Below, piece after piece: positions 4,962 through 15,404 of a stretch of DNA of 64,000 nucleotides; the first letter of the stretch is position 1; every line of letters begins with the position of its first letter. The stretch spans positions 8,331-72,330 of the forward strand of contig JAYTOA010000182.1 of assembly GCA_043748015.1 (NCBI GenBank), in the 5' to 3' direction. The DNA is from Flavobacteriales bacterium (lineage in GTDB: Bacteria; Bacteroidota; Bacteroidia; Flavobacteriales_D; Sanyastnellaceae). Made by a program: the position numbers and the translations under genes. Under the pieces are notes generated by a model. The model was given only the letters and a program-made list of their open reading frames with translations. It did not search any database and was not told the origin of the DNA.

Positions 4962-5180
4962 AAAATCAGCTGATAAGGTCAAAAAAATATAGGTTGGCGA
5001 AGGTAATCAAAGCCCCGGTCGGGCATGTTCGTTTAACGCACAAACATTGGATTATTGTTCATACCTGAATTTTTGAATGAAATGATTTTACATGGAATGA
5101 TTTCTTCAAGTCCATCGAGATTGATACTGAATGGTCTAACAAAAAATTCACGTGTAAAATGTTTGAGTTGAGAGCTCGAC

Positions 5181-11718: not shown

Positions 11719-12879
11719 ATGCCCATCCTCCAAGTAATTACCGCAACGCATCTTAAACAGTGGGAAGGTGTGCCTGATCTCATCTATAAAAATGACACAA
11801 ACTGGATACCACACATCAAACAAGATGTCGCAAGAATTTTCGATCCGGCGGCTAACAAATTATTCAATGACGGCAATGCAGCACGATGGATAGTTGCGAA
11901 TAATGATGGCATCGCCATTGGACGAATTGCCGCCTTTCATTCCAAAAAATATTCAGATGCCCAATCACAGAAGACCGGTGGCATTGGTTTTTTTGAATGT
12001 ATAGACGACGCCAATATTGCGAGTCAATTGCTGGATACTGCAGTCAATTGGCTCAAAACAGAAGGCATGCAAGCAGTTGATGGTCCTATTAATTTTGGTG
12101 AAAAGGAGGCTTATTGGGGATTGCTGGTCATGAATTTCACTGACATGAGCAGTTTTCGGATGAACTACAATCCACCTTACTATAAGAAGTTTTTCGAAGA
12201 CTTCGGATTCAAGACATATTACGAACAACTCTGTTATAAGCGCGATCTTCATGTTCCGGCACAGGAAGTTTTCGTGCGGAAAACCGATGAGCTAATGAAA
12301 GATCCCGGATACCGCATCGCCAATGCCCGTGGCCGATCAATTGAAGAAATTGCATTCGATTTCGTTACCATTTACAACGCCTCGTGGGCGGGACTTGCAG
12401 GATTCAAGGAAATGCATCCCGCTCAGGCATTGCAAGCCATAAGGACTATGCAAAGGGTTATGGACCCTGATATCATGGTTTTTGTTTATCACAATGAAAA
12501 ACCAATCGCCTTCTACATCAATCTACCTGAAGTGAATGAGTTTATGCAACATGTCAATGGAAATCTGAATTGGCTCGGCATCATCAAATTTCTCTATCAC
12601 AAACAATTCGGGAAAAGACATACGATGGTAGGAATTGTATTTGGTGTCAGCAGAGAATATCATGGAAAAGGAGTTGAAGGAGCGATGATCAAATGGAGTG
12701 AGGAAAACATAGTTACGCTGAATCGATATAATGAAACAATCATGACGTGGATTGGAGATTTCAATCCGAAAATGATGCACGTTGCGGAAAATCTTGGCGC
12801 ATCACTTTACCGCAAACTCATTACTTATCGAATGCTCTTTGATAAAAGTCAAGTTTTTAAACGACTTGAAAAGGCTTGA
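11719..12879 (+). CDS. Conserved hypothetical protein, possibly GNAT-like acyltransferase
   Basis: This is a long uninterrupted 386-aa ORF. The functional label comes only from my recollection of similar Bacteroidota proteins and is weak. Confidence 0.5.
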   Translation: MPILQVITATHLKQWEGVPDLIYKNDTNWIPHIKQDVARIFDPAANKLFNDGNAARWIVANNDGIAIGRIAAFHSKKYSDAQSQKTGGIGFFECIDDANIASQLLDTAVNWLKTEGMQAVDGPINFGEKEAYWGLLVMNFTDMSSFRMNYNPPYYKKFFEDFGFKTYYEQLCYKRDLHVPAQEVFVRKTDELMKDPGYRIANARGRSIEEIAFDFVTIYNASWAGLAGFKEMHPAQALQAIRTMQRVMDPDIMVFVYHNEKPIAFYINLPEVNEFMQHVNGNLNWLGIIKFLYHKQFGKRHTMVGIVFGVSREYHGKGVEGAMIKWSEENIVTLNRYNETIMTWIGDFNPKMMHVAENLGASLYRKLITYRMLFDKSQVFKRLEKA

Positions 12880-12957
12880 TAGGCAAGGGATTCGTGATCT
12901 TGCTCAAAACAATTTCGATTAATTCTCAACAAGAGTTGCAACGAAAAGTTGAGTGAG

Positions 12958-12972
12958 TATATTTGCGCCCGC
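12958..12972 (+). promoter_or_regulatory. Bacteroidota-type -7 box TATATTTG plus GC-rich CGCCCGC, upstream of tRNA-Lys
   Basis: TATATTTGCGCCCGC lies 18 nt before the tRNA-Lys 5' end, and a TTG sits about 19 nt upstream (12936-12938). The same 15-mer occurs before the CAT tRNA at 49496-49510 on the minus strand. Confidence 0.45.
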
Positions 12973-12990
12973 TTTTCAGGAAAGCGAGAT

Positions 12991-13063
12991 GATTCCGTAG
13001 CTCAGCTGGTAGAGCAATACACTTTTAATGTATGGGCCCTGGGTTCGAATCCCAGCGGGATCA
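12991..13063 (+). tRNA. tRNA-Lys (anticodon TTT)
   Basis: I folded the cloverleaf by hand. The acceptor GATTCCG pairs with CGGGATC and the anticodon arm is ATACA-CTTTTAA-TGTAT. The T arm is CTGGG-TTCGAAT-CCCAG, the discriminator is A, and no CCA is encoded. Confidence 0.9.
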
Positions 13064-13080
13064 CAAAAGCAGAAGAAATT

Positions 13081-13110
13081 CGAGGACAGCAAGTACTGTC
13101 CTCGTTTGTT
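13081..13110 (+). terminator. Hairpin plus T-rich tail between tRNA-Lys and tRNA-Leu(GAG); terminator or processing signal
   Basis: CGAGGACAG-CAAGTA-CTGTCCTCG forms a 9-bp stem followed by TTTGTTCTTC. Confidence 0.4.
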
Positions 13111-13129
13111 CTTCATCAAAACTGAATTT

Positions 13130-13214
13130 GCCCTGGTGGTGAAATTGGTAGACACGTACGTTTGAGGGGCGTATTTCGCAAGATGTGCTGGTTCGAGTCC
13201 AGTCCAGGGCACCA
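13130..13214 (+). tRNA. tRNA-Leu (anticodon GAG), type II, with encoded CCA
   Basis: The acceptor GCCCTGG pairs with CCAGGGC and the anticodon arm is TACGT-TTGAGGG-GCGTA. It has a long variable arm, a T arm GCTGG-TTCGAGT-CCAGT, discriminator A, then CCA. Confidence 0.9.
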
Positions 13215-13220
13215 ATGTGG

Positions 13221-13269
13221 TTTGCATCAGGAATTTTGTAAAGGACATTATTCCGGATGCAAATTTTCC
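13221..13269 (+). terminator. Rho-independent terminator after tRNA-Leu(GAG)
   Basis: TTTGCATCAGGAAT and ATTCCGGATGCAAA form a 14-bp stem with one mismatch, followed by TTTTCC. Confidence 0.5.
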
Positions 13270-13295
13270 AGACAAAAAATCATTCATACTTTAAG

Positions 13296-13513
13296 GGAGT
13301 GAAGTTCTCCTTCAAAAAAACTTCTGAGGCACGGAGCTGATGAGATCACTTTTTACCGAAGTGGCGGAATTGGTAGACGTGTCCCGACTGCAAGTCGGGA
13401 TGCCGAAAGATGTGAGGGAAATAAAATCTGGAGTGAAGTTCTCCATCAAAAAACTTCTGTGGCGCGAAGCTGATGAGATCACTTTTTACCGAAGTGGCGG
13501 AATTGGTAGACGT
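13296..13513 (+). repeat. Tandem duplication (period 134 bp) of a 65-nt upstream region plus the first 26 nt of a tRNA-Leu gene
   Basis: Segments 13296-13380 and 13430-13513 align with only about 5 differences. The shared sequence is GGAGTGAAGTTCTCC.TCAAAAAACTTCTG.GGC.CG.AGCTGATGAGATCACTTTTTACCGAAGTGGCGGAATTGGTAGACGTG. Confidence 0.8.
13355..13418 (+). pseudogene. 3'-truncated Leu-type tRNA-like gene carrying a palindromic anticodon-arm replacement
   Basis: The acceptor 5' strand and D arm are identical to the intact tRNA-Leu(CAG). They are followed by TCCCGACTGCAAGTCGGGA and a variable region. The copy stops after GAGGG (5' half of the T stem), so there is no T loop and no 3' acceptor strand. 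Confidence 0.6.
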
Positions 13514-13569
13514 GCACGTTTCAGGTGCGTGTGCTGCAAGGCGTGAGGGTTCGAGTCCCTTCTTCGGTA
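13488..13569 (+). tRNA. tRNA-Leu (anticodon CAG), type II
   Basis: The acceptor ACCGAAG pairs with CTTCGGT, giving a compensated A1:U72 pair. U8 is present, the D arm is GCG/CGT and the anticodon arm is CACGT-TTCAGGT-GCGTG. It has a long variable arm, a T arm GAGGG-TTCGAGT-CCCTT, discriminator A and no CCA. Confidence 0.85.
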
Positions 13570-13570
13570 C

Positions 13571-13600
13571 GAAGAGGTCGTCAGTAGTGACGGCCTTTTC
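13571..13600 (+). terminator. Rho-independent terminator of tRNA-Leu(CAG)
   Basis: GGTCGTCA-GTAG-TGACGGCC is followed by TTTTC. The upstream GAAGAGG can extend the pairing into the T tract. Confidence 0.6.
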
Positions 13601-13630
13601 AATTAAAAATCAAAAAGACAAGACGAAAAG

Positions 13631-13736
13631 GAATTGATAGACGCGTCCCGACTGCAAGTCGGGATGTTGTAAAACGTGAGGGTTCGAGTCCCTCCTTCGG
13701 TACGAAGAGGTCGTCAGCTTGACGGCCTTTTCAATT
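13631..13736 (+). repeat. Direct repeat, left copy: 5'-truncated Leu-type tRNA-like body (13631-13702) plus terminator (13704-13732)
   Basis: The copy starts inside the D loop (GAATTGATAGACGCG) and has no 5' acceptor strand. It contains the palindrome TCCCGACTGCAAGTCGGGA, the T arm GAGGG-TTCGAGT-CCCTC, CTTCGGT-A and a terminator. It is identical to 14028-14134 except for the terminator loop. Confidence 0.85.
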
Positions 13737-13760
13737 TACTTTTACTGAAACCTCTTTCCA

Positions 13761-14021
13761 ATGTATTTCTGCTATATCCTCTATTCCAAAAGTCTCGACA
13801 AATTTTATGTAGGCTCTTGTTCCGATCTGGAAAACAGAATTAGAAAACACAATCTCGGGCATGCAACATTTACGTCAACAGGCATTCCCTGGGAGCTGAA
13901 ATGGTCGCGTTCATTCGAAACAAATTCACTCGCTCTTCAATTCGAAAAATCTGTGAAGAAGAAAAAATCAAGAATCTATATTGAGAAACTAATCAAAGAA
14001 ACTTGGATAGAAATACACTGA
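13761..14021 (+). CDS. Small stand-alone GIY-YIG (URI-domain) nuclease family protein
   Basis: The 86-aa ORF has FCYILYS (GIY-like), FYVGSCSDLENRIRKHN (YIG-like plus the conserved Arg/His-Asn) and QFEKSVKK (conserved Glu). Size and motif order match the COG2827/YhbQ-like family. Confidence 0.8.
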   Translation: MYFCYILYSKSLDKFYVGSCSDLENRIRKHNLGHATFTSTGIPWELKWSRSFETNSLALQFEKSVKKKKSRIYIEKLIKETWIEIH

Positions 14022-14027
14022 TCCTTA

Positions 14028-14134
14028 GAATTGATAGACGCGTCCCGACTGCAAGTCGGGATGTTGTAAAACGTGAGGGTTCGAGTCCCTCCTTCGGTAC
14101 GAAGAGGTCGTCAAACATGACGGCCTTTTCAATT
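14028..14134 (+). repeat. Direct repeat, right copy: 5'-truncated Leu-type tRNA-like body (14028-14099) plus terminator (14101-14130)
   Basis: The first 86 nt and last 17 nt are identical to 13631-13736. Only the terminator loop differs (AACA versus GCT). Confidence 0.85.
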
Positions 14135-14282
14135 ATTAGAAACAAAAAAAATCGAATACGAATTTCACAGTTCGTATGCTGCGAATGGAATTGCGATCAA
14201 CTTTTAACTGTAGCCTTAACCGCTGCTAAGAACGAATGCGAACTTCAATGACTAATTTCGTGTTTTATTCCTAAAATTCAAT

Positions 14283-15404
14283 ATGCCGGAGCATCATCTG
14301 TCAAACATTCAAAGCGTTCATCGTTGGTGGCCTTCTACTTCAAAGCCTCTGCTCATCAGTGGTCCATGCAGTGTTGAAACTGAACTACAATTGATCACTA
14401 CAGCCAAGCAACTCGCCGCCACTCACAAACCACATTTTCTGCGCGGTGGAATATGGAAACCACGCACCCGACCCGACTCATTCGAAGGCGTCGGTGTAAT
14501 CGGTCTGGAATGGATGGTTAACGCGAAACGAGAAACCGGTCTACCGATTATCACCGAAGTGGCAACTGCCGAACATGTCGAGCTCTGTTTGAAGTTTGGT
14601 TTCGATGCACTTTGGATCGGTGCCAGGACAACGGTCAATCCGTTTTCTGTCCAGGAAATAGCAGATGCACTTAAAGGTGTGGATATTCCTATCATTGTTA
14701 AGAATCCAGTTAATCCCGACCTGCAACTTTGGATGGGTGCAATTGAACGAATTGCGCGCAGTGGCATCACTAAAATTGTTGCCATGCATCGCGGGTTTTC
14801 TCATTTCGGAGCAAGCATCTATCGCAACAAACCAATGTGGGAAATTCCAATTGCTCTCAAAACGCAATTTCCTGAGCTCGCCATTTTCTGTGATCCAAGT
14901 CACATATGTGGACGACGCGATCTTTTGCAACAGGTCGCTCAGAAAGCACTCGACCTCGGCATGGAAGGCTTGATGATTGAAAGCCATATCGATCCCGACA
15001 AGGCATGGAGTGATGCTGCACAACAAATCACTCCGGATATACTCTCCGAACTCATCAATAACCTTCATGTCAGAGTTGCCTCAACTGACGATGTTCACTT
15101 CACGAACGAATTACAATCACTTCGCTCGCGAATCGATAAAGTGGACGAGGAAATCATTCATCTTATTAAAGACAGGATGAATATTACCGAAGAACTTGGC
15201 CATTACAAGAAGGAACACAACATCACCATTTTACAAGTGGAACGATGGAAGGAAATCATCGAAACACGCACTATGCTTGCGGAAAAATTAGGACTCTCAT
15301 CCGAATTCATTGAGAGATATCTGGAGCTATTGCATAAAGAATCCATACAAACTCAGACACGTGTGATGAATGAAGACGTGGATATACCCGTTGCCAAAAA
15401 GTAA
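14283..15404 (+). CDS. Bifunctional 3-deoxy-7-phosphoheptulonate (DAHP) synthase / chorismate mutase type II
   Basis: The N-terminal part is a DAHPS/KDO8PS-type barrel (ISGPCSVE...FLRGGIWKPRTRPDSFEGVG...CDPSHICGRRD). The C-terminal 90 aa are a helical chorismate mutase (LRSRIDKVDEEIIHLIKDRMNITEELGHYK). Confidence 0.85.
   Translation: MPEHHLSNIQSVHRWWPSTSKPLLISGPCSVETELQLITTAKQLAATHKPHFLRGGIWKPRTRPDSFEGVGVIGLEWMVNAKRETGLPIITEVATAEHVELCLKFGFDALWIGARTTVNPFSVQEIADALKGVDIPIIVKNPVNPDLQLWMGAIERIARSGITKIVAMHRGFSHFGASIYRNKPMWEIPIALKTQFPELAIFCDPSHICGRRDLLQQVAQKALDLGMEGLMIESHIDPDKAWSDAAQQITPDILSELINNLHVRVASTDDVHFTNELQSLRSRIDKVDEEIIHLIKDRMNITEELGHYKKEHNITILQVERWKEIIETRTMLAEKLGLSSEFIERYLELLHKESIQTQTRVMNEDVDIPVAKK

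Follow-up and report, generated by a model that had tools for sequence, protein, structure and literature searches.

Why does a single 19-nt palindrome stand three times in one transfer RNA (tRNA) operon, each time where a tRNA gene would carry its anticodon arm? The operon lies in a 64,000-nt stretch of a Flavobacteriales genome (contig JAYTOA010000182.1, positions 8,331 to 72,330 of the forward strand), which we call the window and whose numbering we use unless a locus (L and a number) is named. Besides intact tRNA genes it holds three partial copies of tRNA-Leu(CAG) and a small open reading frame (ORF) for a predicted GIY-YIG nuclease. A first-pass annotation of the window had offered several answers: a chimeric tRNA, a hairpin connected with the nuclease or with recombination, or decaying pseudogene fragments. 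We find that the hairpin-bearing copies, here called units or pseudo-units, are very probably parts of a cassette that recurs throughout the phylum Bacteroidota.

The locus is arranged as 5′ pseudo-unit A, tRNA-Leu(CAG), 3′ pseudo-unit C, the GIY-YIG ORF and 3′ pseudo-unit D (Table 1). The 19-mer TCCCGACTGCAAGTCGGGA is present three times by exact match, all on the + strand, and its expected count in the window, from 100 dinucleotide-preserving shuffles, is none. As the first-pass annotation had stated, every copy occupies the anticodon-arm place of a partial tRNA-Leu(CAG): the repeat families (D1, D2 and D4) put all three in register with the arm of the intact gene. It was also right that no copy has both acceptor strands, A being without the 3′ strand and C and D without the 5′ strand, and that the variable arms of the copies differ. 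Unit A is identical to the intact gene in its 5′ acceptor strand and D arm, has its own copy of the 62-nt leader (96% identity) and ends in the T stem. Units C and D begin in the D loop, retain T arm, 3′ acceptor strand and a terminator, and are 100% identical over 86 nt.

This arrangement is no assembly artefact. An independent assembly (L034) is identical from tRNA-Lys on, over the 1.4-kb stretch compared, into the DAHP synthase gene, and unitig depths in four sediment metagenomes agree with the layout, the unitig common to C and D having double depth. No ORF-less variant of the locus was found among the metagenome contigs X1-X4. Upstream of tRNA-Lys, L034 (positions 1-66, against 12924-12990 of the window) is wholly different and has another promoter region, either because the assembler joined a second tRNA-Lys locus at the repeat or through a genuine rearrangement.

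The same site is found empty in relatives. The syntenic locus L117 reads promoter, tRNA-Lys, tRNA-Leu(GAG), leader, tRNA-Leu(CAG), terminator and DAHP synthase, with neither pseudo-unit nor ORF, and L115 has the three tRNAs only. Accordingly, units A, C and D and the ORF are additions in the lineage of the window. L117 is a distant relative (its DAHP synthase is 78% identical), so this presence and absence at a conserved site, as in free-standing homing endonuclease cassettes, is seen between distant relatives and is not a population-level polymorphism.

How general is the arrangement? Seen from the protein side, in 79 metagenome loci selected by protein similarity only, an intact tRNA gene lies at most 200 nt upstream of the ORF in 47 of 60 loci (43 Lys-TTT, 2 Thr-CGT and 2 Ala-GGC). 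The gap between tRNA and ORF has a median of 41 nt, which is the terminator alone and leaves no room for a promoter of the ORF's own. On the other side, a hairpin with the stem TCCCGA/TCGGGA follows the stop codon within 70 nt in 69 of 89 ORFs, at the anticodon-arm position of a 3′ tRNA copy; unit D of the window has exactly this canonical placement. The hairpin pattern occurs 132 times in 182 kb, compared to 0.28 in shuffles. Moreover, the units are matched to their hosts: the 3′ acceptor strand of the pseudo-unit fits the local tRNA variant in 35 of 39 loci, and locus-specific terminators are duplicated along with the units. An additional unit stands between tRNA and ORF in 10 of 50 loci. 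From these counts the core module consists of tRNA, terminator, ORF and 3′ unit. A general model in which two hairpins and an own tRNA bound the cassette was dropped, since an upstream 5′ unit is present in only 14 of 44 loci.

Upstream units of the type of unit A are also found in L012, L014, L023, L027, L033, L077, L063, L119 and L122. They can stand in tandem (five in L077, four in L063, and again in L081), giving arrays of two to five units that are followed by a terminator and the ORF. In Mangrovivirga cuniculi (L122:1501-2725), a promoter, a 5′ unit and tRNA-Val precede three 100% identical repeats of 408 nt, each made of ORF, unit and terminator; their identity indicates a very recent amplification.

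The view from the hairpin side agrees. The first-pass annotation had proposed counting the 19-mer in relatives, and an exact-match scan of 596 Gb, with one genome per species, found it in 33 loci where about 4 were calculated as the chance expectation. Seven of the 33 have a non-tRNA context, in line with chance. In 24 others, the 19-mer takes the anticodon-arm position of a tRNA-like copy whose body is that of the adjacent real tRNA, most frequently Val(TAC), with Ala, Thr, Arg and Ile-Ala clusters as further hosts. These 24 loci come from Bacteroidales, Rikenellaceae, Marinilabiliales, Chitinophagaceae isolates, Saprospiraceae, Flavobacteriales and one Calditrichaceae. By a profile of the window's ORF family, a GIY-YIG ORF abuts the hairpin in 8 of them; a ninth (L002), cut at the edge of the locus, shows only the apparent 3′ coding end of an ORF.

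Three architectures can be distinguished. In the first, a promoter is followed by a 5′ partial copy with hairpin that ends at the T stem or T loop, a short spacer and the intact tRNA. In the second, the intact tRNA and its terminator are followed by the small ORF, a 3′ partial copy with hairpin and a duplicate terminator. The third has either kind of unit in tandem arrays. A tRNA-Val locus of Bacteroidales (L023) even repeats the five-part layout of the window. Hairpins of the TCCCGA type are also present in the D loop (L029:5640-5910) and in the T loop directly after GGTTC (L031:6950-7580; L041:1780-1810 and 2130-2160), in these loci in addition to the one in the anticodon arm; it is at GGTTC, too, that 5′ units are usually truncated.

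Other hairpin units were seen in the course of this comparison. A second conserved hairpin, with the stem CCTGTC/GACAGG, lies in the T arm of pseudo-tRNA units of two unrelated loci (L032 at about 5100-5125 on the - strand and L047 at about 1775-1800), which suggests that more than one hairpin class colonises such units. Two 5′ pseudo-units of tRNA-Pro(TGG) with the hairpin TCCCGATAGGAATCGGGA stand ahead of the intact tRNA-Pro in L042:840-1000; the operon also holds a Lys-linked cassette, so that several tRNAs of one operon can be affected. Finally, L008:6700-6900 and L013:5700-6450 have arrays of hairpin units with their own terminators after tRNA-Ile(GAT)-tRNA-Ala(TGC), a pair typical of ribosomal RNA operon spacers.

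Next, we consider how strongly the hairpin itself is conserved. Its stem is TCCCGA/TCGGGA in 168 of about 190 related units, and TCCCGC/GCGGGA, a double compensatory change, in three independent loci. In an alignment of 51 distinct arms, 94.6% of the cells are paired, and the covariation score is reached by 0 of 500 shuffles. Pairs 1-5 are invariant, pair 6 is AU in 46 arms and CG in 5, and pair 7 is UA in 27 and CG in 17. The covariation of pairs 6-8 means that they are selected to pair.

These figures bear directly on the simplest explanation, namely that the units are inert debris: decaying fragments of tRNA-Leu(CAG) duplications whose identity reflects recent duplication or gene conversion and whose hairpin has no function. 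No copy is a complete tRNA, C equals D as a recent duplication would predict, and partial tRNA genes are frequent by-products of mobile DNA (PMC9897764). Yet one stem has been kept in about 190 units from many Bacteroidota orders, beside proteins 38-60% identical to that of the window, while loops, spacers and terminator loops diverge, and its pairing is preserved by compensatory changes. In several Bacteroidales species a 5′ unit with a perfect hairpin precedes tRNA-Val although the spacers have diverged. The first-pass annotation had foreseen decaying fragments in case the 19-mer were confined to the three copies. It is not: other species have it in 24 tRNA-like loci, hundreds of units share its stem, and we regard mere debris as very unlikely.

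The loop behaves differently from the stem. Its length ranges from 4 to 10 nt, and its sequence often completes the palindrome (TTTAAA, TTAA, AAGCTT, TGGCCA). In the class of the 19-mer, the centre occurs in both orientations, GCA and TGC 19 times each. Loops also tend toward the anticodon loop of the host; TTT is found in 68 of 81 loops of Lys hosts. The real loop of tRNA-Ala(UGC), CTTGCAC, is a single base away from CTTGCAG, the flipped form of the window's loop, and for this reason the 19-mer class probably arose on a copy of tRNA-Ala(UGC), was then flipped and reached Val, Thr, Arg and Leu hosts at a later time. Two other ideas about the hairpin were dropped: recognition like that of a restriction site with fixed spacing (GAC-N5-GTC within the 19-mer) does not suit loops of variable length, and mimicry of the initiator-tRNA anticodon stem, with its three G-C pairs, would require the reverse strand polarity.

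Could the units nonetheless work as tRNAs? According to the first-pass annotation, the 19-mer might give a Leu-type body a Cys (GCA) anticodon in a 7-nt loop, or else an expanded loop like those of frameshift suppressors, so that a complete member of this chimeric family would put Leu at Cys codons or shift the reading frame. There is some appearance of this. ARAGORN reports unit C (13622-13703), and likewise several units from other genomes, as tRNA-Cys(GCA); with the Rfam model, a few hairpin units of other loci score as tRNA (L112 55.7, L104 54.5 and L024 45.6 bits); and one unit (L062) has all seven acceptor pairs.

The predicted fold is another matter. By minimum-energy and centroid prediction, the 19-mer closes to an 8-bp stem with a GCA triloop (-11.7 kcal/mol as RNA, -7.7 kcal/mol as DNA, z about -5), so that U33 and A37 of the proposed 7-nt loop are predicted to be paired and no expanded loop is left. 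Acceptor pairing is not under selection: among 105 units with a complete T arm, L062 is the single one with 7 of 7 pairs, 14 have 6 and 90 have 5 or fewer. The units with the highest scores overlap or adjoin the 3′ end of the GIY-YIG ORF. The Rfam tRNA model gives no match to A, C or D, the sole match being to tRNA-Sec at 20.7 bits (E 0.41), far under threshold. The presence of the hairpin on Val, Lys, Ala, Thr, Arg, Pro and Leu bodies removes any link to Leu identity, and an intact Leu-body copy with this arm, which the first-pass annotation had suggested looking for, is absent from all 122 loci. Together with the predicted triloop, the variable loop lengths and the flipped centres exclude a conserved decoding function. 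We therefore give the chimeric tRNA and its frameshifting variant almost no credence; the units are not tRNAs in use, and what looks like a GCA anticodon is simply the hairpin loop. We also considered, and rejected, a GIY-YIG ORF borne by a group I intron within the anticodon loop of a tRNA, as 12800-14300 contains no Rfam intron match at E up to 1 and the ORF lies between tRNA copies.

The protein that accompanies the hairpin is small. In the window, residues 1-71 of the ORF match Pfam PF01541 (E 1.3e-15), which is the GIY-YIG catalytic domain only, and a profile search of the PDB gave 1zg2 (E 5.9e-10), 1ywl (E 1.8e-7) and the SLX1 structure 7cq2 (E 2.4e-4), with no UvrC or I-TevI chain among the listed matches. 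On these profiles the ORF belongs to the Slx1/UPF0213 branch of the GIY-YIG superfamily as a single minimal domain. The catalytic-core residues Y5, Y16, G18, R26, H30 and E62 show no change in any of 96 homologous ORFs; the nuclease is thus predicted to be intact and, like its branch, structure-specific. Proteins of the family are 79-98 amino acids long.

More than 5000 protein clusters at E ≤ 1e-10 make the ORF family a very large one, and its carriers include cultured species, among them Mangrovivirga cuniculi, Taibaiella lutea and Longitalea luteola. The window protein is 50-59% identical to proteins of the Lys-linked clade, compared to only 38-49% for those of other loci with the identical 19-mer. 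Conservation is therefore much stronger in the hairpin than in the adjacent gene. Among the defence and toxin models of PADLOC, only a weak 'HEase' match was obtained (E 0.002), with none to the ToxN, AbiQ or CptN families, and PHROGs gave no meaningful match. Viral contigs had 0 matches to the 19-mer and to the Lys-type hairpin pattern, and plasmids had no tblastn match to the GIY-YIG protein.

Table 1. Features of the window locus (window coordinates)
Feature	Position	Strand	Basis
tRNA-Lys(TTT), first of the ancestral tRNA trio (context)	12991..13064	+	ARAGORN; Rfam tRNA 72.8 bits; also in syntenic L117 and L115
tRNA-Leu(GAG), second of the trio (context)	13130..13214	+	ARAGORN; Rfam; syntenic relatives L117 and L115
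Duplicate of the tRNA-Leu(CAG) leader, part of unit A	13296..13354	+	Repeat families D4 and D6; 96% identity to 13430-13487
Unit A, 5′ pseudo-tRNA: 5′ acceptor strand, D arm, hairpin, altered variable arm, 5′ T stem; ends before the T loop	13355..13418	+	Sequence; repeat families
Hairpin copy 1, TCCCGACT-GCA-AGTCGGGA	13382..13400	.	Exact match; predicted fold; covariation
Unit B, intact tRNA-Leu(CAG); the gene that hosts the cassette	13488..13569	+	ARAGORN; Rfam tRNA 47.8 bits; orthologue in L117
Terminator hairpin 3′ of unit B, homologous to the terminators of C and D, loops alone differing	13571..13604	+	Repeat family D5
Unit C, 3′ pseudo-tRNA: D loop to hairpin, variable arm, T arm, 3′ acceptor strand; no 5′ acceptor strand	13630..13702	+	Repeat families D1 and D2; false ARAGORN tRNA-Cys; under the Rfam tRNA threshold
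Hairpin copy 2	13646..13664	.	Exact match
Terminator 3′ of unit C	13704..13736	+	13704-13732, 13 pairs; repeat family D5
Predicted GIY-YIG nuclease gene, 86 amino acids, catalytic domain alone, Slx1/UPF0213 type	13761..14021	+	Pfam PF01541 E 1.3e-15; PDB profile matches
Unit D, 3′ pseudo-tRNA identical to C, immediately 3′ of the ORF stop	14028..14099	+	Repeat family D1, 100% over 86 nt
Hairpin copy 3	14043..14061	.	Exact match
Terminator 3′ of unit D	14101..14134	+	Repeat family D5

Some further features of the window deserve mention. The variable arm of units C and D, TGTTGTAAAACGT (13665-13677 and 14062-14074), could form a 3-bp stem with a GTAA tetraloop of the GNRA type. In unit A, the corresponding arm reads TGCCGAAAGATGT and looks like the 3′ half of its tRNA-Leu(GAG) counterpart, a sign that the Leu genes may have undergone mosaic gene conversion. 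After tRNA-Leu(GAG), at 13216-13275, lies a long hairpin, TTTGCATCAGGAAT ... ATTCCGGATGCAAA, followed by TTTTCC; L117 has no such element between its Leu genes. Upstream of the tRNA cluster is a 386-amino-acid ORF (11719-12879), which has a counterpart at the same position in L117 (387 amino acids, no Pfam match on record).

What, then, does the hairpin do? Starting from the observed anatomy, association, conservation with covariation, and empty site, we lean, with some reserve, towards a selfish cassette of tRNA operons in which the hairpin is the cis-acting site of the cassette's own structure-specific nuclease and the tRNA-derived repeats drive recombination. The core cassette comprises an intact tRNA, its terminator, a minimal GIY-YIG gene of the Slx1/UPF0213 type that has no space for a promoter, a 5′-truncated copy of the same tRNA and a duplicate of the terminator; in the truncated copy, positions 27-43 are swapped for a hairpin whose stem, TCCCG(A)/(T)CGGGA, is fixed. 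In the window, such a cassette has colonised tRNA-Leu(CAG), adding one 5′ pseudo-unit (A) and two 3′ pseudo-units (C and D) around the nuclease gene. The nuclease may bind or nick its site as a DNA hairpin or cruciform, and the flanking direct repeats of tRNA origin may act as the homologous sequence through which the cassette loops out, is amplified in tandem, undergoes gene conversion and inserts again at tRNA genes.

Several lines of reasoning point this way. Because the hairpin is the only cassette-specific non-coding element and the nuclease the only cassette protein, the nuclease presumably acts at the hairpin. A tie to the adjacent nuclease or to recombination was one of the roles suggested in the first-pass annotation, and it is strongly supported by the association in more than 100 loci. 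Invariant outer pairs, inner pairs selected to pair, indifference to the orientation of the loop and the palindromic tendency of the loop would all fit a DNA hairpin or cruciform that is recognised by a protein. The direct repeats of tRNA 3′ segments on either side of the ORF must favour looping out, re-integration and unequal exchange, as in the triplication of L122. The patchy distribution of the cassette also suggests horizontal movement.

Other observations count against such a nuclease-and-site cassette. The link between protein and hairpin is one of association rather than of biochemistry or genetics, and, with no copies found on plasmids or in viral contigs, only the patchy distribution speaks for horizontal movement. 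An 86-amino-acid catalytic domain has no obvious module for reading sequence. About 20% of related ORFs are without a nearby hairpin, and many hairpin units are without an ORF within 8 kb, so coupling in cis is not obligatory. Cutting the hairpin of its own cassette would not alone explain how the cassette spreads to naive tRNA genes. Among the stem variants, a T.G wobble and a C.A mismatch occur 3 times each, which does not tell RNA from DNA. Finally, the swap is exact (positions 27-43) in bodies as unlike as Leu and Pro, and the loops often resemble the host's anticodon loop. Simple transfer of a homologous patch explains this poorly, and it hints that tRNA-like geometry matters, possibly as RNA.

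The hairpin could indeed act as RNA, displayed on a tRNA-derived scaffold within the operon transcript, where it might bind the GIY-YIG protein (for autoregulation, or like an antitoxin) or else help the ORF message to be stabilised or processed at its 3′ end. Its orientation is without exception that of the sense transcript, it takes the exact place of the anticodon arm with the register kept in at least six tRNA types, its inner pairs covary, some variants are compatible with G.U pairs, and the loops often mimic that of the host anticodon. The arrays of two to five units upstream of a tRNA, followed by terminator and ORF (L077, L063 and L081), would look like those of a type III toxin-antitoxin system. 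Two salt-marsh metatranscriptomes hold contigs over tRNA-Lys and the next hairpin unit of L059 and none over the ORF, but these contigs are of low depth and may include DNA carry-over; the organism of the window was in no RNA run searched, and a look-up of RNA for L097 was also empty. Work on RNA or tRNA is also hinted at in the literature, where Slx1-like GIY-YIG domains of bacteria are described as fused to a tRNA methyltransferase of the TrmH type (PMC1564403).

Against a role as RNA, the five outer pairs are fixed in sequence, which goes beyond mere pairing, and half of the 19-mer class has its loop centre flipped. No common tRNA fold is kept, 5′ units being without half of the T arm and 3′ units without the 5′ acceptor strand. 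The GIY-YIG enzymes are, as far as we know, all deoxyribonucleases, and the protein does not match the PADLOC models of defence or toxin genes. Altogether, we judge a role as RNA rather unlikely, though it is the strongest of the alternatives. Its more specific form is unlikely: the pseudo-tRNA would be a functional partner that binds, inhibits or directs the minimal nuclease, giving an RNA-protein module for selfishness, addiction or defence in tRNA operons. In that arrangement, the promoter of the host tRNA would supply abundant RNA while the terminator throttles the nuclease.

Whichever way the hairpin works, the cassette remodels tRNA operons across Bacteroidota. Many of the contigs that carry it are just 0.5-1 kb long, and many assembly breaks are therefore probably caused by it. 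Annotation is affected as well. In many genomes, ARAGORN labels the units tRNA-Cys(GCA) or, when it reads the other strand, tRNA-Ala(TGC), and such labels could seed false reports of odd tRNAs or of recoding. For the nuclease-and-site cassette, the obscure bacterial Slx1/UPF0213 nucleases gain a candidate substrate in a 6-8 bp hairpin of fixed stem, which can be tested with oligonucleotides (the 19-mer, and also TCCCGATTTTATCGGGA). If the hairpin instead acts as RNA, the units would be a natural case of a protein-binding hairpin presented on a tRNA scaffold.

How does the cassette compare with known systems? Very common as it is across the phylum, it is apparently undescribed. Rfam 15, searched at E ≤ 1 for the region and at the gathering threshold for 20 loci, gave matches to the tRNA clan only, and no description of it was found in the searchable literature, including Dunin-Horkawicz 2006, van der Gulik 2023 and Weinberg 2017. 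Its protein is like Slx1 and the UPF0213 proteins BH0048 (1zg2) and EF2693 (1ywl) in profile similarity and in being a minimal single domain, as prokaryotic Slx1-like proteins are described to be (PMC1564403). Unlike them, it is tied to tRNA operons, pseudo-tRNAs and a conserved palindrome, a link of which the searchable literature has no instance.

The attL and attR duplicates of integrative elements, partial tRNAs that gene finders mis-call as tRNAs (PMC9897764), offer a second comparison, and one could see in the units the attachment-site duplicates left by an island of the integrase type with tRNA genes as its target. Inserted DNA between direct repeats of a tRNA 3′ part is the classic signature of integration at a tRNA (PMC9897764), and the window has it. 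However, the insert is about 300 bp long with the GIY-YIG domain as its sole coding content (a single ORF of about 260 nt), and neither the window nor the related loci have an integrase near the site. Each repeat begins in the D loop and takes in the terminator; instead of serving as a crossover core, the anticodon arm is exchanged for a conserved hairpin; and 5′ copies occur upstream as well. We find such an island scarcely plausible.

Closer in gene content are free-standing homing endonuclease genes. SegB of phage T4, on which Brok-Volchanskaya and colleagues reportedly worked in 2008, is a GIY-YIG gene of this kind in a tRNA gene cluster. In common with SegB-type genes, the cassette has a small GIY-YIG gene between tRNA genes, which relatives lack at that site and which presumably is selfish. 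In contrast, its protein of 80-95 amino acids is a Slx1/UPF0213 catalytic core without a DNA-binding domain, and it is chromosomal in Bacteroidota, with no copies found in the viral contigs. The cassette also has what the Seg-type cassettes lack, a host-matched pseudo-tRNA with a fixed hairpin.

Type III toxin-antitoxin systems of the ToxIN type have tandem short repeats behind a strong promoter, then a terminator and a nuclease gene. The repeats, terminator and nuclease gene of L077 and L063 follow the same order. The cassette differs in that the nuclease is not ToxN, AbiQ or CptN and is not known to be toxic, the most constant unit is downstream of the ORF and the repeats are tRNA-derived. 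Repetitive extragenic palindromic (REP) elements with their REP-associated tyrosine transposases (RAYT) are short conserved palindromes, often arrayed and linked to a small nuclease gene of the HUH type. The cassette shares with them the short conserved palindrome, the frequent arrays and the link to a small nuclease gene. In the cassette, however, the nuclease is of the GIY-YIG type, and the palindrome is not dispersed between genes: it is placed, save for a few cases, within tRNA-derived sequence at set loop and arm positions.

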